A DNA stretch of 64,000 nucleotides from Naegleria gruberi. Its lineage: Eukaryota. The position numbers were made by a program, and so were the translations under genes. The DNA is taken from the NCBI GenBank assembly GCA_000004985.1, contig GG738861.1; one strand, 5' to 3'. The notes under the pieces are model-generated. The model had not been told where the DNA came from, made no database searches, and worked only from the letters and a program-made list of their open reading frames with translations. Shown piece by piece: positions 1 through 56,969 of this stretch. Within the stretch, counting starts at the first letter, position 1, and each line of letters opens with the position of its first letter.

Positions 1-555
1 ACCCAAACCCAAACCCAAACCCAAACCCAAACCCAAACCCAAACCCAAACCCAAACCCAAACCCAAACCCAAACCCAAACCCAAACCCAACCACCCAAAC
101 CCAAACCCAAACCCAAACCCAAACCCAAACCCAAACCCAAACCCAAACCCAAACCCAAACCCAAACCCAAACCCAAACCCAAACCCAAACCCAAACCCAA
201 ACCCAAACCCAAACACAAACCCAAACCCAAACCCAAACCCAAACCCAAACCCAAACCCAAACCCAAACCCAAACCCAAACCCAAACCCAAACCCAAACCC
301 AAACCAAAACCCAAACCCAAACCCAAACCCAAACCCAAACCCAAACCCAAACCCAAACCCAAACCCAAACACAAACCCAAACCCAAACCCAAACCCAAAC
401 CCAAACCCAAACCCAAACCCAAACCCAAACCCAAACCCAAACCCAAACCCAAACCCAAACCCAAACCCAAACCCAAACCCAAACCCAAACCCAAACCCAA
501 ACCCAAACCCAAACCCAAACCCAAACCCAAACCCAAACCCAAACCCAAACCCAAT
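1..555. repeat. Telomeric repeat array (CCCAAA)n, G-strand TTTGGG
   Basis: About 92 tandem hexamers run from the window edge, with four variant units (near 86-99 CCAACCACCC, 214 CACAAA, 304 CCAAAA, 371 CACAAA). The C-rich strand reads 5'->3' at the left edge, as expected for a genuine left chromosome end. Confidence 0.9.
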
Positions 556-13197: not shown

Positions 13198-16100
13198 ATG
13201 GCAATAATACAAAGAAGGACTGCAACAATTGCATCCTTGTTGATTATTGTATTATGGTATTGCTTCTGTACTCAACACAGCATTGAGGCGAGTAACCCAA
13301 AAGTAGTGGGTGTCGTATCAACTATTGGAACTGATCAAGATAATGTGAAGACTTTGTATGACTTTGGACCCGATTGGAATGAAGGTACATACGCTTACTG
13401 GGGTGTTTTCAATGGTTTTCAATCAGGAACAATCTTCTTTAATGGTGACACCACCCCATTATTGGCTGGGTTGAATCCATCCAACTATATGTGTGTGGTA
13501 ATGTATTCGTCAAACAAACCCTCAAATGAAATTGTTCAAAAGGGTTGCCTCTATTCATCAAAGCAATTAGATATATTCTCAGCGACTGCATCAGCATACG
13601 GCTTTTATGTTACTGTTAGAAATTTAGGTTCGGTAGTGATGGCTGAGCAAGAATTTCCACCAGGAACATTCATTACAAGATTAAACCTAGAAGCAATAAC
13701 AGTTGAAAATGGGGCCAAAGTTGTTCATTCCAATGCAACCAATTACGTTGCATGGAGTGGTATGGCACGTTTAGATTTCAAGGAAGCTGATTTTTTGGTT
13801 GTGGTTGGTAATGCTCAATGCTCTCTCTCAAGTCAGGATACTGACAAATTAATCTTTGAAGATTCGTCCGAGTTGACTCTTCCACATACATGCGAAATGA
13901 CTTCTTTCGCTGCTCTATACACTGCAACTTATGATTCAATGACCTTGGGAAAAAAGCAAATGATAGAACAAATTAACCAAAGAAGTACATTCATAAAGAA
14001 GGTTATCAAGTCATCTACTACTTCCTTCTGGGTATATGGTAATTTTGTTGACTATACTTTATTTGATAATGAGAGACGCTATGGAAAACAAGCTCCTTTC
14101 TTTAGTTATTATGAAATTGACCCAAGCAATACCCAACCTTTCACACGGAAACACAGTACGTATATTTCTTCGTTTCAACCAACATACTCGGCTGAAGCAA
14201 ACGATATGAAAATAATTCCAGCTGACGGACAAATTGAAATATACATTGTTGGTTATGTGGAAATACCAAGCTCATTTTTATGTTGCTTCTTGAAGATTGG
14301 TACTGCCGAGCCATATCGAGCTAGAAAGCTAGAAATTGAAGGTGATGTAGTATTTACAGGAATAGATACCAACACAAATACTCAAGAAGTAATCGTTACG
14401 GGTCACTTTGCAGGTACAATTCAAATTGGTTCCACCAAATTGACAAGTAGTGGAGGACGAGATATTGTGGTTGCTGCTTTCAAAAGAGTTACTTTAGATG
14501 CTGTTTGGGCTATTAAAGAAGGAGGCTCAAACGATGATTATTCATATGGAATTAAGAATAATAATAATGAATTCATATCAATTTTTGGCAAACTTGGCTT
14601 GAATCCAAAATTTGATGGTAAGAATGTATCTGTTTCTGTGTCAACTGCATCAAACGGATTCATTGCGCATTTATCAGATCCTAATTATTGTTATGGAATT
14701 GCTAGTAATACTGAGACTGTTTGTAATGGTCATGGTCAATGTCAAAAAGATGGCAGTTGCCTTTGTAGTTCAGGTTTTGGAGATCAGTGTGAATTCCCAA
14801 CTTGTAACGAAATACACTTTAATGAAACAAATGTTTGTAATGGGCATGGTAACTGCACTGATTATGATACTTGTTCCTGTAATGATGGATGGACTGGTGC
14901 TAATTGTAATATACCTGTTTGTTTTGGTGTTAGTGAAGGTGAAAGTTGCAGTCAACATGGTTCCTGCATTTCAAATAATACTTGTCAATGTAATAATGGA
15001 TGGTTTGGAAGTAACTGCTCAATTCATTCATGTAATGGAACAAGTTCACAAGATGAGCAAAATATTTGTAATAATGGCAATGGTATATGTGTATCTGCAG
15101 ATATGTGTTCATGTAACCAAAATTGGACAGGTCAATTCTGTGAAATTCCTAAATGTTTTGGATTGAATTCAAGTGATATTTCAGTTTGTTCAAGTCATGG
15201 GCAATGTATTAATGCTAACACTTGTAGTTGTAATAAGGGATGGTTTGGAGCTGATTGTTCAATTCATTCATGTAATGGAACAAGTTCACAAGATGAGCAA
15301 ATCGTTTGTACTAATGGCAATGGTAAATGTGTATCTACAGATATGTGTTTATGCAATCAATATTGGACTGGACAATTCTGTGAAATTCCAAAGTGTTTTG
15401 GATTACCAGCAAACGATTCAAATGTATGTGCTGGTCATGGTAAATGTCTCTCCCCTGATGTTTGTTCTTGTAATCCTAAATGGTTTGGGGCTAAGTGTAA
15501 TTTCCCATCTTGTTTTGGAATTCCATTTTACAATTCTTCAGTTTGTTCCTCCCATGGCCAATGCATAACCTTGGACACATGCAAATGTCTAGATGGATAT
15601 GATGGAGAAACTTGTTCCTCTCATTCATGCTTTGGTTTTAAATCCAATAATGACTCGAGAGCTTGTACGAATGGTCAAGGAAAATGCACAGGTGCTAATC
15701 AATGTACTTGTTTGGAATCCGAAAGTGGAAGAGCAATAGGTCCACAATGTGAAACGATTTTATGTAAGGCAGGAGTTGATATGTGGTTACCACAAAAAGA
15801 TCCAAAAGTTTGTTCTCAACATGGTATATGTAAATTCAACATGTCAACTGTTGGATGTTTTTGTGAGGAAGGTTACGAAGGGCCAATATGTCAGTATCCA
15901 ATCTGCTATGGAATTTCATCGAATTCAAAGAAAGTTTGCAATGGAGTTGGTAAATGTAATGCTCCAAATAACTGTTCATGTTTTGATAATGATATTGATG
16001 GTCACTTTGTTGGAACAAATTGTGACAAGTGTAAAATTCCATACTCTGGAATTAATTGTACTGTTATTGAAAAGTGTAATGCTACATTGAAATGCAATTC

Positions 16101-19100
16101 ACATGGTACATGTGATGACTATGGTTTCTGTACTTGTTTCCAAGACGAAACTAACGGTTATTGGAATGGAACTAATTGTAATACTTGCAATGATGGATTT
16201 TATGGAGAAGATTGCATGACTCAATTGTCCAATGTACATTTCAATAATGAAGGAAATGGATTACTTTTCCAAATGACCTCTCCAAATCATTTCACATCCT
16301 TAAATGTTGATTGTAACAATTTATTAGATTCTTCAAGTATTTCCTCATTTGGTTCAAATGTAGTTTGTAGATATTCTAATAAGACATCCAATGATTTTAT
16401 TATTGAATTGGGAACTGATAATTCTATTCAAGTTGATCAAGAAATTTTATTGAATAGAAATGTGTTTAATAGAAACAAATTAGGAAATGATTATCAATCA
16501 TTCAAAATTGGAAATGCTGAAAATCCCATTCCACCAACAATTTTAATTTCTCAAAAAACAACATATTCAAGTTGTGAAAATATTCTATTGGATGCAAGTG
16601 AAAGTTATTCCACAGATGGAAAACAAATTTCCTATAAATGGGAAATTGTATCTTCCAACATGATGACACTTCCAAACAATAATTCAAGCAAACTGTCAAT
16701 CACCTATGACAGTATAAATGCTGGAAGTCATACTTTCAAACTGACAACTACAAGCCAAAGTTTGAAAACATCCTCATCCAAGCAAATCACATTCCAAAAG
16801 TTGAATTATGCAACACCTGTCATTTCTATTGAAGGAAGTGACAGCCTTTCACTTTCAACAAGCTCATTGCCTTTGATTGTAAGAAAATTAATCACCTTAC
16901 CTTCTTGTTTACCTTCAAAATCTGAAATTATTGTAAAATGGGAATATTTGAGTGGAACTGGAATGGAATATCAAGTTGACTCTACNNNNNNNNNNNNNNN
17001 NNNNNNNNNNNNNNNNNNNNNNNNNNNNNNNNNNNGATGGTTTGGAGCTGATTGTTCAATTCATTCATGTAATGGAACAAGCTCTCAAGATTTACAAAAT
17101 GTTTGTAATGGAGGAAGAGGTCAATGTATTGACACTGATATTTGCTCATGTAATGAAACATGGACAGGTCAATTCTGTGAAATTCCTAAATGTTTTGGAT
17201 GGAATTCAAGTGATAATTCAGTTTGTTCAACTCATGGTCAATGTATTAATGCTAACACTTGTCAGTTGTAATAAGGGATGGTTTGGTAGTAACTGCTCAA
17301 TTCATTCATGTAATGGAACTAGTTCACAAGATGTGCAAAACGTTTGTAATGGAGGAAATGGTCAGTGCATTGGAACAGATTTGTGTTTGTGTAACCAAAA
17401 TTGGGCTGGTCAGTTCTGTACTATTCCTAAATGTTATGGCGTTATTTCTACAGACGCTACAGTTTGCTCTACTCATGGTAACTGTACTGATATTAATACT
17501 TGCCAATGTAATACAGGTTGGTTTGGTCCATTATGTAGTATTCACTCCTGCAATGGAACTAGTTCACAAGATTTAAAACACGTCTGCAATGGTGGTAATG
17601 GAGTATGCATTCAAATGGATAAGTGTGATTGTAAATCTGGTTGGACAGGCCAGTTCTGTGAAATTCCGAAGTGTTTTGGTTTAGCTTCAACTGATAAAAA
17701 AGTGTGTGCTGGTCATGGAGGTTGCATGAGCTCTGATAAATGCTCTTGTAATAATGGATGGTTTGGAGCTGATTGTTCAATTCATTCATGTAATGGAACA
17801 AGCTCTCAAGATTTACAAAATGTTTGTAATGGAGGAAGAGGTCAATGTATTGACACTGATATTTGCTCATGTAATGAAACATGGACAGGTCAATTCTGTG
17901 AAATTCCTAAATGTTTTGGATGGAATTCAAGTGATATTTCAGTTTGTTCAACTCATGGTCAATGTATTAATGCTAACACTTGTAGTTGTAATAAGGGATG
18001 GTTTGGAGCTGATTGTTCAATTCATTCATGTAATGGAACAAGTTCACAAGATGAGCAAATCGTTTGTACTAATGGCAATGGTAAATGTGTATCTACAGAT
18101 ATGTGTTTATGCAATCAATATTGGACTGGACAATTCTGTGAAATTCCAAAGTGTTTTGGATTACCAGCAAACGATTCAAATGTATGTGCTGGTCATGGTA
18201 AATGTCTCTCCCCTGATGTTTGTTCTTGTAATCCTAAATGGTTTGGGGCTAAGTGTAATTTCCCATCTTGTTTTGGAATTCCATTTTACAATTCTTCAGT
18301 TTGTTCCTCCCATGGCCAATGCATAACCTTGGACACATGCAAATGTCTAGATGGATATGATGGAGAAACTTGTTCCTCTCATTCATGCTTTGGTTTTAAA
18401 TCCAATAATGACTCGAGAGCTTGTACGAATGGTCAAGGAAAATGCACAGGTGCTAATCAATGTACTTGTTTGGAATCCGAAAGTGGAAGAGCAATAGGTC
18501 CACAATGTGAAACGATTTTATGTAAGGCAGGAGTTGATATGTGGTTACCACAAAAAGATCCAAAAGTTTGTTCTCAACATGGTATATGTAAATTCAACAT
18601 GTCAACTGTTGGATGTTTTTGTGAGGNNNNNNNNNNNNNNNNNNNNNNNNNNNNNNNNNNNNNNNNNNNNNNNNNNCCAAATGACAGCTAGACCACTAGT
18701 TGTTAACTTGATCCAAATTGAATCAACAATTGACCAAGTAATAATTGAGATTGAAGAAATTGATTCTGATTTGCAAACTATTCCATTCGAAAGAGAATGG
18801 TCCACCAATAATTTGAATAACAATGACAACATATTACAATATCTATCATCTATCAAGAATAATACATTAACAATTACAAAATCATTAGTGAACGGTGCTT
18901 CTCAATTCGACATTTCATTAAGGTCAAGTAAGGTTTCCAGATATTCCACTTCAACTCTCTCCATTTTATTCCCAGAATCTCCTGAACAAATTCCACCTTC
19001 AATAACACCAGCTAACTCGCCTCCATCAAAATTGAATAAGGGAACTTTATTAAGCGTACAAAGTATTGTTTCGAGTGCAAGTAACAATATTATTAGAGAA

Positions 19101-20900
19101 TGGACAATGAATGGTCAATCTATTCCTTCAGAATTGACAAGAAATATGAGAATGCAACTTTCTGAGTCTGACGAATTAATTTTGGACACATCTTCTTTGA
19201 CAGAAGGTGCAACTTATCAAATTTCTTTCAAAGTTACTAATGTTGATTCTTTGTTATCTGCTTCATTGAATCATTCATTTGTAATCAACAAATCACCAAA
19301 ACCATGTGACTGTCAAGTGTCACCTTTGAGTGGTATTGCAATGACAACAATATTTACTTTCAATTGTCCAAAATGTCAAAACGATCAGAATAGTAATACT
19401 TTTGAATATGGTTTTATTGATGACTTTTCAAAATCCAACTTTCCACTTTCTAAAACAGAAGAATTATATCAAAAACTTCCAATGCCAAATTCTGGAAACA
19501 AATTAGATCTTTATGTCAAGGTAATTGATTCATTGACAGGATCTAGCTCCATAACAACCAAACAAGTTACCATTTCTCTTCCGGTTGTCAAAAGTTTAGC
19601 AGGAATCAAAAAGTTAACAGCCTCATGGAACCAAATAGCAACATTGGCTCCTGTTGGTGATTATCAACGAAGTGTTTTCAATACTGCAACCATTTCTAGA
19701 ACAATGAATTTATTATTTAAGAGTATAAGTTCAAAGAGAGATTTTTGTAATGGAAATGGACAATTTAAAGATGGGAAATGTGTTTGCAATTCTGGATTTA
19801 CAACAAGTAATTGTAAATGGTCCACTGAAGATTTTGAATTTATTCAATCTTTAATTAGAGATTTATTGAATGATTTTATGGGTTCAAGTCAAATCATGAC
19901 AACCGCTTCAGAATCAACAAATAGAAATTACATTACAAATTTATTATTTGGATTGAATTCAATTTCACAAAATTCTGAATATCTTTCTAACCAAATGGTC
20001 AACTCTAGTTTAATTTTATTGAGAGATGCTTTGGTATCAGTTCAATCAAGTACCACCTTTGTTCTGTCTAGAGGAGATTTGGTCAACTTGCAAAATATTT
20101 TGAACTTACAAGAAAATTTAATGGATGGTGAAAAATTATTGGAAACTGTTGAATTATTAGGGCAAGTTTTATTGAGAAATGTTTTAATTGGTCAAATACC
20201 ATTTAAATTTGAAACTAACAGTTATTTGACAGTTTTAAACAAACATTTCAAGAATCAAATGAATGGAATGAAATTCGAAAGTGAGATGGTGAATATCACG
20301 TTACCATGGAACATTTCATCTCTCTTGAAAACTAATTCAATCAAGTCACCAATCAAGTACAGATGGAATATTCAAAAAAATACAGACACCATTGCAATTG
20401 CAAATCAACCTGGAAAGATAATATCAATCAATTCAGTTGTGAATAGTTTACAACTTGATCCTTCACCTCAATCTTATTCGAAATACTTATTCGACATTGA
20501 GATGAAACAATACGACAGTCAGGCAGCTTATGTTTGTGCTAACATTGGATCAGCATCATTGGAAACTGATTGTTCCATTTCTATCAAGAATAACCAAATA
20601 GCAACTTGTGAATGCTCTTCATTAGGATATAATCTTGTAATTCTTGAATACAAATCCATTGAAAATCATGTATCAACCTCCTCTTCATCAAATTCAAATA
20701 TAATTGTCAAAAAACCTCCAACGAGCAATCCATTAATGTGGTTATTATTGTTACTAGTCCTCATTCCACTTACTGCCCTACTAATTGCAGTAATTGTATG
20801 GTTTGTAGTAAAGAAACTGGGTAAAGATAAGAATAATACAAGAAATCCATACATGCAAACACAAGAAAGCAGTTCTACAATTGAATTGAAGCATGTTTAA
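13198..20900 (+). CDS. Giant type I membrane glycoprotein: signal peptide, ~430-aa N-terminal domain, more than 20 EGF-like repeats, Ser/Thr-rich stalk, TM helix and short cytoplasmic tail. One gene broken into three ORFs by two assembly gaps
   Basis: ATG at 13198 begins MAIIQRRTATIASLLIIVLWYCFC. ORFs 13198..17271, 16952..18691 and 18507..20900 share architecture and differ in frame only across the N runs at 16986-17035 and 18627-18676. The C-terminus has a TM segment, PLMWLLLLLVLIPLTALLIAVIVWFVV, followed by KKLGKDK... and a TAA stop at 20900. Confidence 0.7.
16986..17035. other. Assembly gap (50 N) inside an EGF tandem-repeat array
   Basis: An N run flanked by near-identical EGF cassettes. 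Confidence 0.95.
18627..18676. other. Assembly gap (50 N)
   Basis: An N run at the end of a ~700-bp block identical to 15170-15880. Confidence 0.95.
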
Positions 20901-32739: not shown

Positions 32740-34310
32740 ATAAAGTAAAGTATTCAGATTGATTTTAATTTTACATAATAGTTTTATTACAAACAAGTTT
32801 TTGTTGTTTGTTTGGGAGAATTGAATTGTTTCAAAATCAATAGATTTAGAAACACTTTCTGTGGACAATACCTGGACCGGCATCCTCATATTCTTCCTTG
32901 GTGATCCACATTTGTTGGAAAGTGGACAATGAAGCCAAGATGGAACCACCAATCCAGACAGAGTACTTTCTTTCAGGTGGAGCAACAACCTTAATCTTCA
33001 TGGAAGCTGGAGCCATAGCAGTCAATTCCTTGGTCATTCTTTCAGCAATACCTTCGAACATAGTAGTACCACCAGACAAGACAACGTTACCGTACAAGTC
33101 CTTTCTGATATCAATATCACATTTACCAATAGAGTTGAAAGTAGTTTCATGAACACCAGCAGCTTCCATACCAATGAAGTTTGGTTGGAACAAAACTTCT
33201 GGACATCTGAATCTTTCATTACCAACAGTGATAACATTACCGTCTGGCAATTCGTATGACTTTTCAACAGATGATGATTCAGCAGCAACCTTCATTTCAG
33301 CTTCGAAATCCAAAGCAATATAACAGAGCTTTTCCTTAATATCTCTGACGATTTCTCTTTCAGCAGTAGTATTGAATGAGTAACCTCTTTCCATCAAAAT
33401 CTTCATCAAGTAATCAGTCAAATCACGGCCAGCCAAATCCAATCTCAAAATGGCGTGTGGCAAAGCATAACCTTCATAAATTGGAACAGTGTGGGAAACA
33501 CCATCACCAGAGTCCAAAACAATACCAGTGGTTCTACCAGAAGCATACAAGGACAAGACAGCTTGAATAGCGACATACATAGCTGGAACTGAGAAGGTTT
33601 CAAACATAATTTGAGTCATCTTTTCTCTGTTTGCCTTTGGATTCAAAGGAGCTTCAGTCAACAAGACTGGGTGTTCTTCTGGAGCAACTCTCAATTCATT
33701 GTAGAAAGTGTGATGCCAGATCTTTTCCATATCGTCCCAATTGGTAACAATACCGTGTTCAATTGGATACTTCAAAGTCAAAATACCTCTCTTTGATTGA
33801 GCTTCATCACCAACATAGGCATCCTTATTACCCATACCAACCATAATGGACTTTTGCTTTGGTCTACCAATAATTGAAGGGAAGACAGCTCTTGGAGCAT
33901 CATCACCAGCAAAACCAGCTTTACACATACCAGAACCGTTATCGACAACGAGGGCTTGAACGTCTTCACAGAATGACATTTTATAGATTATTTGAATGGA
34001 TTTGTTTTTTTTGATTTTTAATTGATGATTTGTGTGTTAAAAAAATATTTAAATGAAAAATTAATGAAAGAATGATTGATGTGATTGATGGCAAGTCAAA
34101 TTGAAGTTTTAAAAAACTATTTTAGAGGTCATTTTTTAAATGTGGAAAGTCAAGTGAAGAAGAACAACTTTACAATATGACTTTTCATTCTTTTCATTCA
34201 ACACATCATCAAAATTACTAGCAATCAACTGTAAAATTTAACACATCAAACATTGCTTTGTCAACTTACTGTAATTTTCAACGTGGAAAAAATTCATCAA
34301 GTTTGAATGA
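32740..34310. repeat. Left arm (~1.57 kb) of an inverted duplication containing an actin gene
   Basis: This arm is the reverse complement of 40160..41730. The flanks match (for example ctattttagaggtcattttttaaatgtggaaagtcaagtgaagaagaac) and the 3' flank matches for ~100 bp past the stop. Confidence 0.85.
32846..33979 (-). CDS. act: Actin (377 aa, intronless)
   Basis: Sequence begins [41 protein letters not shown]...IVHRKCF. It is a canonical conventional actin, closest to amoebozoan actins. Confidence 0.95.
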
Positions 34311-38180: not shown

Positions 38181-38949
38181 AATCTCACCGACACGGAATT
38201 CACTAGACAAGTTTTCATTATTTTATGAAACAGAAAGGATAACCTTCTTAATGTTTCAAAAGATGCTAATCAAATAATTGGAAATGTTATAATCTATCAA
38301 CATTTCATTCTGTGGATCATCTTCTGAAATTCTGAATTGAATAGCAATGGAGCTTTGTTTAAAAGATAACTTGATAAGATTTGTTAATTAATTATAATTT
38401 ACAATTTTTCATGACTAACGTAATTCTCAACAATAACATACCAATTTGAAATTTGGTAAAACTGCAAATAGAATATTTTATTGGAAAGAAAAATAAAGGA
38501 GTCTAACCTTTGACTATTTTCTCGATGGAATTAGGAGATAAGGTTTTGAAAATTGGCAGATATGTTGATTACATACCAGTCTTCATATTATGAAAAAAAT
38601 TTTAAATTAAATAGTGAAGATAAAGTTAAAAATTAATCTCGAGTGCCGGGAATTGAATTTCCTAATTTGGAAGATGACTTCAACAACCAAATAACAATAA
38701 TAAATTGGGTTATTAAATTAATGTTTATTAAATAGTGACCGTTAGGTCACTGATTGTTAATTAATTATTGATGATGATTTGTTGTTGAACAGATACTAAC
38801 CACCACCGATTGTTGTCATAATATTAAACACAGAGTAATCACCGTGTCGCCAAATTCCTTGATAATTATTCATAACTGTAACTTCTTGATCAAAAGGCAC
38901 TCGAGCAATAAACAATTTGATTTCACACAGCCAAAACTCTCGTTCATAC

Positions 38950-39092
38950 TTTGGGTACCGGGAATGAAATTTCCAAATAAGGAATGACCGATATCATTCA
39001 ACTATTACTAACTCATACTCACACTAACAAAACAAATTGAACCCGGGTCGCCAGAGTGACAGTCTGGAATGCTACCACTATACCACACCCGA
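38950..39092 (-). tRNA. tRNA-Asp(GUC) gene interrupted in the T-loop by a 66-bp insertion (probably non-functional)
   Basis: The 5' part at 39092..39035 reads TCGGGTG TG GTATAGTGGTA GCAT T CCAGA CTGTCAC TCTGG CGAC CCGGG TTCAATT. After the insertion, 38968..38950 supplies TTCATT CCCGG TACCCAA A. The acceptor stem pairs 6 of 7. Confidence 0.6.
38969..39034 (-). mobile_element. 66-bp insertion in the tRNA-Asp T-loop; a short member of the family that also interrupts tRNA-Gly
   Basis: The insert is TGTTTTGTTAGTGTGAGTATGAGTTAGTAATAGTTGAATGATATCGGTCATTCCTTATTTGGAAAT. Its first ~40 nt and its GGAAAT 3' end match the ends of the 1334-bp Gly insertion. Confidence 0.5.
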
Positions 39093-40159: not shown

Positions 40160-41730
40160 TTTATCAAACTTGATGAATTTTTTCCATGTTGAAAATTACA
40201 GTAAGTTGTTAATTGCAATGTTTGCTGATTGTTTGCTCGTAATGTTTGATGATGTGTTGAATGAAAATAATGAAAAGTCATATTGTAAAGTTGTTCTTCT
40301 TCACTTGACTTTCCACATTTAAAAAATGACCTCTAAAATAGTTTTTTAAACTTCAATTTGACTTGCCATCAATCACATCAATCATTCTATCATTAATTTT
40401 TCATTTAAATATTTTTTTAACACACAAATCATCAATTAAAAATCAAAAAAAAACAAATCCATTCAAATTCTATAAAAATGTCATTCTGTGAAGACGTTCA
40501 AGCCCTCGTTGTCGATAACGGTTCTGGTATGTGTAAAGCTGGTTTTGCTGGTGATGATGCTCCAAGAGCTGTCTTCCCTTCAATTATTGGTAGACCAAAG
40601 CAAAAGTCCATTATGGTTGGTATGGGTAATAAGGATGCCTATGTTGGTGATGAAGCTCAATCCAAGAGAGGTATTTTAACTTTGAAGTATCCAATTGAAC
40701 ACGGTATTGTTACCAATTGGGATGATATGGAAAAGATCTGGCATCACACTTTCTACAATGAATTGAGAGTTGCTCCAGAAGAACATCCAGTCTTGTTGAC
40801 TGAAGCTCCTTTGAATCCAAAGGCCAATAGAGAAAAGATGACTCAAATTATGTTTGAAACTTTCTCAGTTCCAGCTATGTACGTCGCTATTCAAGCTGTC
40901 TTGTCCTTGTATGCTTCTGGTAGAACTACTGGTATTGTTTTGGACTCTGGTGATGGTGTTTCCCACACTGTTCCTATCTATGAAGGTTATGCTTTGCCAC
41001 ACGCCATCTTGAGATTGGATTTGGCTGGTCGTGATTTGACTGATTATTTGATGAAGATTTTGATGGAAAGAGGTTATTCATTCAATACTACTGCTGAAAG
41101 AGAAATTGTCAGAGATATTAAGGAAAAGCTCTGTTATATTGCTTTGGATTTCGAAGCTGAAATGAAGGTTGCTGCTGAATCATCATCAGTTGAAAAGTCA
41201 TACGAATTGCCAGATGGTAATGTTATCACTGTTGGTAACGAAAGATTCAGATGTCCAGAAGTCTTGTTCCAACCAAACTTCATTGGTATGGAAGCTGCTG
41301 GTGTTCATGAAACTACTTTCAACTCCATTGGTAAATGTGATATTGACATCAGAAAGGACTTGTACGGTAACGTTGTCTTGTCTGGTGGTACTACTATGTT
41401 CGAAGGTATTGCTGAAAGAATGACCAAGGAATTGACTGCTATGGCTCCTGCTTCAATGAAGATTAAGGTTGTTGCTCCACCTGAAAGAAAGTACTCTGTC
41501 TGGATTGGTGGTTCCATCTTGGCTTCATTGTCCACTTTCCAACAAATGTGGATCACAAAGGAAGAATATGAGGATGCCGGTCCAGGTATTGTTCACAGAA
41601 AGTGTTTCTAAATCTATTGATTTTGAAACAATTCAATTCTCCCAAACAAACAACAAAAACTTGTTTGTAATAAAACTATTATGTAAAATTAAAATCAATC
41701 TGAATACTTTTTGTGTTGCGAAAGAGAAAT
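40160..41730. repeat. Right arm of the actin-containing inverted duplication
   Basis: Reverse complement of 32740..34310. Confidence 0.85.
40478..41611 (+). CDS. act: Actin (377 aa), second copy, protein identical to the 32846..33979 copy
   Basis: The protein is identical. Off-frame ORFs differ at a few residues, so the nucleotide differences are synonymous. Confidence 0.95.
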
Positions 41731-55251: not shown

Positions 55252-56663
55252 TGCGTCGACCGGGAATTGAAATTTCCTTTTTTGGAATTCATTTAACTTT
55301 TAATTTTATGATGAAATTATGAATTATTTATTTTAATATTATTCATGATGTGAAACATCATGTTGAATTCTGTTCATTATTTTTAATTCATGATGTGAAA
55401 CATCATGTTGAATTATTAACAAATGTTGTTCTTCAATTTTTCATTGAATGTTGTTCTTTCAATGAATGTTGGAATAAGTGTCCAGTATATGATAGAATTG
55501 TTAATACAAGTAAGTTTTCTATTATTTTATATTTATTAATTGACTCACGGGTAATGGAATTTCCTTTTTTGTAAATCATCATGATTGATGATGATTGATG
55601 ATGATTAAATAATAATAATTTATTATTTTATAGATGATGGTACAATTAGATTTGTTAGTACATATCCTAATTGTATTTTAAAGAAAGAAAATTCACCAAC
55701 TAAAATTGAAGATATTATTCGTGAATATGAAGATGTAAAAGTTGTTTTAAATGAATTAGGTAAATCAACAACAAAAATTTATTCATCAGATACAACAAAA
55801 CATATGAATTTCCTAAAAGTTTTATTTATTTATGTAATGGTAATATTAAATATGATCAATCATTAAATATATCACAAGGAATTTATACAATTAAAATTCA
55901 AGATGATGAACATGATCACAAATATTATTATTTATTCGGAAGAGGTTTATTATTTCTATCAATTACATTACAAATGATTCCAACATTTAGTTTAAACAAG
56001 TATTATTATGAAATTGTATTGAATGATTTAAGTAACACATATTTTGATAAGAATGAAATTATTCAATATAAAATTGAAATTTTGCCATCAAATATTATTC
56101 AACAATATTCTAAACGAAAGTTTCTTGTTAGAAAAGATAGTCAAAAGAACTCAAGATTTATTACATATCAACCTGACGCTCAATCACCATCAAAGAAAAC
56201 AAAGAAGAATAACATTATTGAAAGTGATATTGAAGATTTCGATTGCAATATTAAAGATATTGATGATTGGGTATAGGGAAACGGAATTTCCTAATTGGGA
56301 ATGTCATCACACAATAAATTAAATTTATTATTTATTCATTGATGTTCACAAACTGTGAATTAACACATTACATGATGAAACAATTCAAACATTTACTCAA
56401 ACTTTAAACATTAACCATCGGGTAACGGATTTTAATACATGTACTAGTATGTTTATTAATTGGTCGACGCACATAAATTTAAATAAACAAAATTAACAAG
56501 ATTTTAAACAAAATCCTACATAGAGTTGGAGAACGGGAAATGAAATTCCCAAATTGAAATTGAGAAACAACTATTCATTTCACAATAATTCATACTATCA
56601 AAATGAATTGAACCCGGGTCACGGCGATGGCAACGCCGTATTCTACCACTAAACCATCGACGC
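55252..56663 (-). tRNA. tRNA-Gly(GCC) gene split by a 1334-bp insertion in the T-loop
   Basis: The 5' part at 56663..56606 reads GCGTCGA TG GTTT AGTGGTAG AATA C GGCG TTGCCAT CGCCG TGAC CCGGG TTCAATT. The 3' part at 55271..55252 reads TTCAATT CCCGG TCGACGC A. T-stem and acceptor are perfectly complementary, and TTCAATT is present at both junctions. Confidence 0.8.
55272..56605 (-). mobile_element. 1334-bp insertion in the tRNA-Gly T-loop, probably composite. Contains AT-rich ORFs and several internal 'GGAAAT + tRNA 3'-end-like' junction motifs
   Basis: It starts CATTTTGATAGTATGAATTATTGTGAAATGAATAGTTG..., similar to the Asp insert start, and ends ...CCAAAAAAGGAAAT next to the duplicated TTCAATT. 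There are no terminal inverted repeats. It carries a 100-aa ORF (55974..56276) and palindromic tcatgatgtgaaacatcatg direct repeats at 55343 and 55389. Confidence 0.55.
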
Positions 56664-56969
56664 TTCTTGTTAAGATATTAAGGTTCCTTAATTTAATATA
56701 AGGAATATCCAAAATGCTTAAAGTACAACACAACAAGAATTGAGTATTCGTTTGAACATGCTGTAAAATATTTCAAATTATGCTAAGATCATTTGATGTA
56801 TTTAATGCCATAGGGCATTGAGAGCCATCATTTGAAGATTCAAATAGTATGTTCTTGATTTTATCTGATAAAGCACAAGAATAACATTTCATCCACTAAA
56901 TTTTATAAATGTTGACTGTGTTACATAATAGTATTTAATTATTATTGAAATGAGGATAACAATAAATTA

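Follow-up and report, generated by a model that had tools for sequence, protein, structure and literature searches.

How does a tRNA gene come to lie in two pieces more than a kilobase apart? In a 64,000-nucleotide stretch of the Naegleria gruberi contig GG738861.1 (hereafter the window), the two parts of a tRNA-Gly(GCC) gene are separated by 1334 bp, which we call insert A (Table 1). The 5′ part comprises the acceptor 5′ strand, the D arm, the anticodon arm, the T-stem 5′ strand and the T-loop TTCAATT, and still has the A box and most of the B box. The 3′ part begins with a second TTCAATT, continues with the T-stem 3′ strand CCCGG, the acceptor 3′ strand TCGACGC and the discriminator A, and is followed, 11 nt downstream, by a TTTT run of the kind typical of an RNA polymerase III terminator. 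TTCAATT (AATTGAA on the plus strand) is present at both junctions, at 56612..56606 and 55271..55265. Joined through a single copy of it, the halves give 71 nt that ARAGORN folds into a perfect tRNA-Gly(gcc) cloverleaf, with an acceptor stem of 7 bp (GCGTCGA/TCGACGC) and a T-stem of 5 bp (CCGGG/CCCGG). The half-tRNA-Gly patterns have no second occurrence in the 64 kb (0 in 100 shuffles). An earlier note, made from the sequence alone, had described the locus as an insertion into the B-box/T-loop of a tRNA-Gly gene, 1334 bp long and flanked by a 7-bp duplication; exact searches and the cloverleaf bear this out, as does a second case in a tRNA-Asp(GTC) gene. The tRNA-Gly stretch is very probably the product of a site-specific mobile-element insertion.

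The second case, at 38.6–39.1 kb, was reached through a motif scan built on a repeat within insert A. Here, ~17 kb from the tRNA-Gly gene, a tRNA-Asp(GTC) gene is interrupted by a 377-bp insert (insert B) and cut at the same nucleotide, after T58. With one TTCAATT copy removed, its rejoined halves form a 71-nt tRNA-Asp(gtc) cloverleaf, and a TTTTT run lies 6 nt downstream of the 3′ part. The 7-bp TTCAATT is present at four of the four junctions of inserts A and B. Around the site, tRNA-Gly and tRNA-Asp have 20 nt in common (GACCCGGGTTCAATTCCCGG). The outer flanks of the two genes are unrelated to each other, and the two insertions are therefore separate events. Only two tRNA genes were detected in the window, and both are interrupted. 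Because the second gene is split in exactly the same way as the first, chance is excluded. The target of the family is the T-arm CCGGG-TTCAATT-CCCGG of tRNA genes, which is entered, so far in one orientation, with duplication of the loop.

Inserts A and B have the same orientation, the same 7-bp duplication and homologous ends, with YRTTTTGWTAGTRTGA adjoining the 5′ half and TTCCAAAWWAGGAAA(T) adjoining the 3′ part in both. The left end of insert A on the plus strand is ATTTCCTTTTTTGGAA, and the 3′ end of the element in tRNA sense is A/G-rich (AAAAAAGGAAAT). A TTTT that begins 2 nt into the element is conserved in A and B. The earlier note had read an A-rich stretch plus GGAAAT at the end of the insert, and indeed insert A ends in ...CCAAAAAAGGAAAT in tRNA sense; its report that terminal inverted repeats and long terminal repeats (LTRs) are lacking also agrees with our search, which found neither of these in insert A, nor terminal direct repeats, one weak 29-nt subterminal inverted repeat (76% complementarity) aside. 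Insert B is homologous along its whole length to a 320-bp core unit of insert A: the alignment of the two scored z = 6.7 over shuffles, compared with z = 0.2 for an unrelated control. Insert B is the bare core, whereas the remaining ~1 kb of insert A carries a decayed orphan open reading frame (ORF). No further copies besides A and B were found within the window with blastn, tblastn or an nhmmer profile.

A ~30-nt motif, CGGGnAAnGrA followed directly by ATTTCCTwwTTkGrAA, is repeated in direct orientation in both inserts. Its first half resembles the tRNA side of the junction and its second half is the element end. In A, it occurs at 55261 (the real junction), 55548, 56275 and 56534, with a weaker copy at 56419; in B, at 38647 (the real junction) and 38959. 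The left-junction motif CGGGnAAnGGAATTTCCTTTTTTG recurs inside the intron of the ORF (Table 1) and again at 56275–56306. Near the 3′ end in tRNA sense, hairpins lie at homologous positions, 38734–38751 in B and 56345–56359 in A. Their sequences differ (AGTGACC-GTTA-GGTCACT in B and TTCAC-AAACT-GTGAA in A), and the structure may be conserved between the two inserts.

A feature of both inserts is a set of three internal segments, S1–S3, that resemble the interrupted gene (Table 1). S1 repeats the 3′ end of the element itself and continues into the T-loop and the T-stem 3′ strand. S2 is an exact inverted copy of nt 62–71 of the host tRNA, located 134 nt from the 5′-half junction in A and 129 nt in B; the next base in both inserts is C, as at C74 of CCA, whereas the base flanking the tRNA-Gly gene is A. 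S3 is a direct copy of nt 40–49 (A) or 40–50 (B) of the host tRNA with one mismatch, and in A it is followed by the T-loop-like GGTTAAT. S2 and S3 match their own host tRNA only; against the other tRNA, just the shared T-arm matches. In a MAFFT alignment, S2 and S3 of A and B fall in the same columns. A 10-mer match to any part of a tRNA arises in 2–4% of shuffles, and estimates from base composition put the chance of B's S2 lying within ±10 nt of A's position at ~3e-6 and that of the seven Asp-specific bases of S3 at ~1e-5. S2 of B follows the 3′ strand at the G4–U69 wobble position of tRNA-Asp, and so was not copied from the 5′ acceptor strand. Gene conversion from real junctions could explain S1 and perhaps S3, but fails for S2, which is complementary to the 3′ strand at this wobble position as well. 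Polymerase-theta filler DNA and hairpin P-nucleotides were also rejected as sources of S2, as this 10-mer is found 130 nt into the element and occupies homologous positions in A and B, which have diverged from each other. Two shorter matches, a direct 8-mer to tRNA-Gly nt 5–12 and an inverted 8-mer at 56082, are attributed to chance, as ~2–3 such 8-mers are expected.

A third copy was found outside the window. The ENA metagenome contig L002 (559 bp) encodes a 44-residue fragment (P0002) that an exhaustive HMMER search matched to the ORF of insert A. The contig is related to that insert but has internal deletions and rearrangements, with blocks of 88–96% identity. As this copy lies outside the present locus, the family exists elsewhere and its members differ by internal deletions. 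S3 is unchanged in L002, and S2 carries one substitution, giving one mismatch to tRNA-Gly. At positions 219–290 and 430–495, L002 holds two copies, inverted relative to each other, of the segment GATTGGGTATAGGGAAACGGAATTTCCTAATTGGGAA...AATAAAT, which comprises the ORF end and a junction-like motif; the family therefore undergoes inversions or duplications besides deletions. The L002 version of the hairpin near the 3′ end has one pair broken. Junction-pattern scans of JGI metagenomes and scans of IMG/VR gave no further copies, and exact-protein look-ups of neighbouring and junction-spanning ORFs gave no genomic contig, with only P0002 leading to the related contig L002.

The orphan ORF of insert A runs antisense to the tRNA. 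A first exon-like stretch without ATG extends to 55509, followed by a spliceosomal-type intron (GTAAGT...ATAG) at 55510–55633 and a second exon from 55634 to a TAG at 56274–56276, with a frameshift somewhere within 55752–55866. The last 100 codons are identical to the N. gruberi 'predicted protein' XP_002678484.1/EFC45740.1. The conceptual 236-residue protein has no match in Pfam, PHROGs, NCBIfam or PDB sequences; searches of 5.8 billion clustered proteins and 1.84 billion representatives yielded nothing but the ORF itself and the L002 fragment. Its AlphaFold2 model, with a predicted local distance difference test score (pLDDT) of 30, is uninformative. Over the 99 nt of the ORF common to A (55797–56276) and L002 (121–219), there are 5 substitutions, 3 of them synonymous and the others conservative (E/D), which faintly hints at past selection on the ORF. 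Upstream of the ORF are two perfect direct repeats, each with a hairpin. This part of the insert, together with the ~320-bp core and the host-matched segments, had been passed over by the earlier note.

Table 1. Coordinates of the split tRNA genes, the two inserts and features within the inserts. Window positions count from the first letter of the stretch; element positions of S1–S3 are counted in tRNA sense from the element end adjoining the 5′ half.
Feature	Window position	Element position	Strand	Basis or description
tRNA-Gly(GCC) 5′ part, nt 1–58	56606..56663		(−)	sequence reading, exact string search, cloverleaf fold
tRNA-Gly(GCC) 3′ part, nt 52–71	55252..55271		(−)	sequence reading, exact string search
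Insert A, 1334 bp, 23% G+C	55272..56605		(−)	tRNA sense 5′-CATTTTGATAGTATGA...CCAAAAAAGGAAAT-3′
Core unit of insert A, 320 bp	56286..56605		(−)	colinear and homologous with the whole of insert B
Decayed orphan ORF	55323..56276		(+)	antisense to tRNA; ORF analysis, protein match
Two perfect 29-nt direct repeats, ATTCATGATGTGAAACATCATGTTGAATT, 45 nt apart	55341..55414		(+)	upstream of ORF; each with hairpin
Left-junction motif CGGGnAAnGGAATTTCCTTTTTTG, internal copy in intron	55548..55579		(+)	84% identical to the real junction, 55261–55292
S1 of A, GGGAAT-TTCATTT-CCCGTTC (tRNA sense)	56531..56550	56–75	(−)	resembles right junction
S2 of A, GGTCGACGCA (tRNA sense TGCGTCGACC)	56462..56471	135–144	(+)	exact inverted copy of tRNA-Gly nt 62–71
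S3 of A, CCGTTACCCG (tRNA sense)	56419..56428	178–187	(−)	direct copy of tRNA-Gly nt 40–49 (CCGTGACCCG), one mismatch
tRNA-Asp(GTC) 5′ part, nt 1–58, ends TTCAATT	39035..39092		(−)	sequence reading, exact string search
tRNA-Asp(GTC) 3′ part, nt 52–71, TTCAATT CCCGG CACTCGA G	38638..38657		(−)	sequence reading, exact string search
Insert B, 377 bp, without ORF	38658..39034		(−)	tRNA sense 5′-TGTTTTGTTAGTGTGA...CCAAATTAGGAAA-3′
S1 of B, GGAAAT-TTCATT-CCCGGTAC (tRNA sense)	38955..38974	61–80	(−)	resembles right junction
S2 of B, GGCACTCGAG (tRNA sense CTCGAGTGCC)	38896..38905	130–139	(+)	exact inverted copy of tRNA-Asp nt 62–71
S3 of B, TGGCGACACGG (tRNA sense)	38842..38852	183–193	(−)	direct copy of tRNA-Asp nt 40–50 (TGGCGACCCGG), one mismatch

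We consider it likely that the 1334-bp stretch is a non-autonomous N. gruberi DNA element, a member of a T-loop-specific family that is moved in trans by a transposase cutting 7 bp apart. This reading is supported by two precise, independent insertions at the same site and in the same orientation, by full-length homology between the core of A and B, and by the related copy elsewhere. Internal deletion derivatives such as L002 are typical of DNA transposons, and lend it further support. The enzyme would make 7-bp staggered cuts at the T-loop, as Dada-type DDE transposases do inside small-RNA genes, and the host-matched segments would be sequences that a lineage-specific enzyme reads in both element and target. 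If the autonomous partners of A and B belonged to different lineages, S2 and S3 would be explained by proteins that recognize a sequence common to element and target.

That the transposase is itself Dada-like is possible, and we propose it only tentatively. Transposons of the Dada superfamily are the precedent for insertion inside tRNA genes, a precedent that the earlier note did not mention. They use fixed sites in multicopy small-RNA genes (U6, U1, 5S and tRNA, including tRNA-Gly and tRNA-Asp), make a 6–7-bp duplication, lack terminal inverted repeats and contain family-specific short internal repeats that recur in the target gene (PMC3706591, PMC8869645). Their tRNA families insert at nt 8–13 (PMC3706591, PMC8869645); on our own reading of a published tRNA-Leu duplication, another sits in the anticodon arm. 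A and B resemble Dada in their single fixed position in a multicopy small-RNA gene, the length of the duplication, the lack of terminal inverted repeats, the internally deleted derivatives at the same site, the fixed orientation within the family and, placement aside, the short internal repeats that recur in the specific target gene. They differ in having no DUF6729/DDE transposase and in their target, T-loop nt 52–58 rather than nt 8–13, the anticodon arm or the small nuclear RNA sites. Their target-matched segments are longer (10–14 nt), lie 60–190 nt inside one end rather than at a distance of 3 nt, and include direct and inverted copies of both flanks. Their heterolobosean host is not among the hosts in PMC3706591 and PMC8869645.

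Several observations weigh against a DNA element served by a Dada-like enzyme. The transposase gene is absent from both copies, and the only ORF has no family match: the Dada-U6_DR core matched PF20499 at 1.5e-88, and the ORF of insert A matched nothing. The Dada transposase (DUF6729 N-terminal region, with CCCC and CCHC zinc fingers) was found in none of the 10 long window ORFs scanned. A search for Dada (Pfam DUF6729) proteins gave 586 matches, and among the 120 named matches listed none is named Naegleria and all are animal. Known tRNA-targeting Dada elements do not use the T-loop, the target-like segments lie deep inside the element, and the 7 duplicated nucleotides are exactly the loop between inverted arms, as a tyrosine recombinase crossover would give. 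The inference is based on two junction-bearing copies and one fragment (L002). Dada membership of A and B is thus unproven, although a non-autonomous derivative need not encode a transposase; an autonomous partner was looked for and not found.

One alternative is a circular element integrated by conservative site-specific recombination, with TTCAATT as a 7-bp crossover region common to element and tRNA instead of a duplication made by repair, and with a Crypton-like or bacterial-integrase-like tyrosine recombinase acting in trans. A loop between inverted arms, here the T-stem arms CCGGG/CCCGG, is the classic core geometry of tyrosine recombinases and the reason why bacterial islands use T-loops. 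A and B share this geometry with T-loop islands and prophages and with Cryptons, along with a fixed orientation and the lack of terminal inverted repeats; an asymmetric core gives a fixed orientation, and the internal junction-like motifs (element end, 7-mer and CCCG) could be secondary binding sites for the recombinase. However, two copies out of two in the same orientation are expected by chance at p = 0.5. The ORF of insert A has no Pfam match to such a recombinase and insert B, at only 377 bp, has no ORF. The element arms (GGAAAT/CATTTTG) are unlike the tRNA arms (CCCGGG), where a single core-binding domain would normally need likeness, and the gene is destroyed, with no replacement 3′ end supplied by the element as bacterial islands do. 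We regard this alternative as unlikely. Choice of target by base pairing, with a transcript or strand of the element's 5′ region acting as a guide in the manner of the IS110 bridge RNA or IS608, is more doubtful still. Under this proposal, S2, complementary to nt 62–71 of the tRNA-sense strand, and S1 and S3, identical to nt 52–65 and 40–50 of that strand and so complementary to the opposite one, would together clamp the T-loop of the matching gene from both sides. Where S2 and S3, which lie at homologous positions, differ between A and B, the differences are precisely those between tRNA-Gly and tRNA-Asp. Moreover, S2 would be directed at one strand on one side of the core and S1/S3 at the other strand on the other side, which is the geometry of a bridge RNA. 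In IS110 and IS608, too, short internal sequences match both sides of the core and differ with the target. Yet neither strand of the 5′ region shows a conserved secondary structure (consensus energies of −2.4 and −1.5 kcal/mol, almost no covariation), and no gene of IS110 or TnpB/Fanzor type is present in the elements; neither the ORF of insert A nor the 10 long window ORFs encode an IS110-type DEDD/Ser recombinase, and no conserved fold was found. IS110 and IS200/IS605 elements are known only from prokaryotes, use a DEDD/Ser recombinase or a HUH Y1 transposase and, with IS608, are not known to make a 7-bp duplication. The comparison covers only two lineages, S2 of L002 departs from tRNA-Gly at one position, and separate lineage-specific transposases explain the matching of S2 and S3 equally well.

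A retroelement is improbable. S2 would then be a primer-binding site and the purine-rich 3′ end a polypurine tract or A-rich tail, and integration would rely on an integrase or on target-primed reverse transcription. The G that precedes S2 in tRNA sense in A, B and L002 pairs with C74 of the added CCA and not with the gene's flanking A; the A/G-rich 3′ end could fit a retroelement tail; and the A and B boxes kept in the 5′ half could in principle allow polymerase III to transcribe into the element. As a primer site, however, S2 would leave C75 and A76 unpaired, which the primer needs, and the TTTT 2 nt into the element and many later T runs would stop polymerase III. There are no LTRs and no terminal direct repeats, for which reason an LTR retroelement and a terminal-repeat retrotransposon in miniature were rejected too, and there is no similarity to reverse transcriptase, gag or integrase. 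The antisense ORF has a spliceosomal-type intron, which also speaks against a retroelement. Both ends are conserved in A and B and the interior is deleted, the opposite of the 5′ truncation of non-LTR elements; the tail consists only of AAAAAAGGAAAT, so that neither these elements nor short interspersed nuclear elements (SINEs) are matched. An independent tRNA-like SINE end, which the earlier note had raised, does not fit either, as the acceptor stems completed by the two 3′ parts differ, each being that of its own gene. A Helitron was rejected because no rotation of the duplicated 7-mer yields 5′-TC...CTRR-3′ ends. Least credible of all is that no mobile element is involved and that the locus reflects mis-assembly, chance similarity or a functional tRNA gene that is split or contains an intron. 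ARAGORN does report an apparently 'intact' 72-nt tRNA-Gly(gcc) at 56593–56664 (−), and the fact that both tRNA genes of the window are interrupted might suggest that this is how they are normally built. But the reported fold is forced: insert sequence is drawn in for the T-stem, which has two pairs, and for the acceptor stem, which is mismatched. An Rfam scan of the window found no tRNA, at either the gathering score or E ≤ 5. Two loci with different tRNAs and flanks and the same junctions, together with an independent metagenome copy, exclude chance and mis-assembly, the other possibility raised in the earlier note. The insertion point is not a canonical intron position, and introns and split genes entail no exon duplication, whereas here the 7-nt loop is duplicated; moreover, the AT-rich inserts of 0.38–1.3 kb start with a TTTT that resembles a polymerase III terminator. 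ARAGORN overlooked the split tRNA-Asp altogether.

The earlier note had set the locus against the dictyostelid tRNA-targeted retroelements, described as inserting upstream or downstream of the gene. That contrast is beside the point, as the host is N. gruberi (Heterolobosea), from which the ORF match XP_002678484.1 comes. TRE5, TRE3, DGLT-A and Skipper-2 integrate only in flanking windows of tRNA genes; for the first three, these are ~50 bp upstream or ~100 bp downstream of intact genes (PMC5006619). What they have in common with A and B is the association with tRNA genes in a compact protist genome; they differ in being retrotransposons with reverse transcriptase that contact polymerase III factors and leave the gene intact.

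Under the preferred reading of a transposase-mobilized DNA element, each insertion would inactivate its tRNA gene. Each 5′ part keeps the A box and a nearly complete B box (GGTTCAATT), and the TTTT at the element start would stop RNA polymerase III just past these retained boxes; the product of the split genes is probably truncated and useless.

The window begins with 92 tandem copies of ACCCAA (positions 1–554, 98% matches), a telomere-like repeat that reaches the window start, and is probably a subtelomeric piece or the end of an N. gruberi chromosome. The split tRNA genes lie 38–57 kb from this repeat, and the G+C content of the window is ~33%. A cluster of very large ORFs occupies 2770–31428 on both strands, with teneurin-type EGF repeats and REJ domains (1748, 1357, 579, 797, 1617 and 972 residues; internal tandem repeats with periods of 117–426 nt). 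Three ORFs at 13198–20900 overlap end to end and may represent either the exons of a single gene or a gene with frameshifts. Between 21001 and 23000, G+C content falls from 21% to 14%, and the overlapping ORFs of 350–454 residues on both strands are probably low-complexity sequence rather than genes. Two divergent 377-residue actin ORFs flank the split tRNA-Asp region, at 32846–33979 (−) and 40478–41611 (+); the only match for one of the actin genes was a 1.2-kb Logan contig. Weak Rfam mir-3533 matches inside these ORFs (33089–33172 and 41285–41368) are almost certainly spurious.

Literature searches on Naegleria tRNA-targeted elements, the T-loop and Dada/DUF6729 found no description of such elements. 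To our knowledge, Dada elements, mainly from fish and Perkinsus, are the only transposons described as inserting at a fixed nucleotide inside tRNA genes, and the T-loop has never been reported as a site. Transposons specific for small-RNA genes are known; what appears new here is the T-loop target, the heterolobosean host and the host-matched internal segments. As ARAGORN counts the broken tRNA-Gly as intact, Naegleria tRNA gene counts may be inflated. The family would be specific for the most conserved loop of tRNA, with copies as short as 377 bp, and these mirror their target tRNA on both sides of the site, providing a handle on how elements specific for small-RNA genes find their sites. Should the segments act by pairing and not through a protein, the family would represent a programmable integration system in a eukaryote, whose specificity would change when short segments change.

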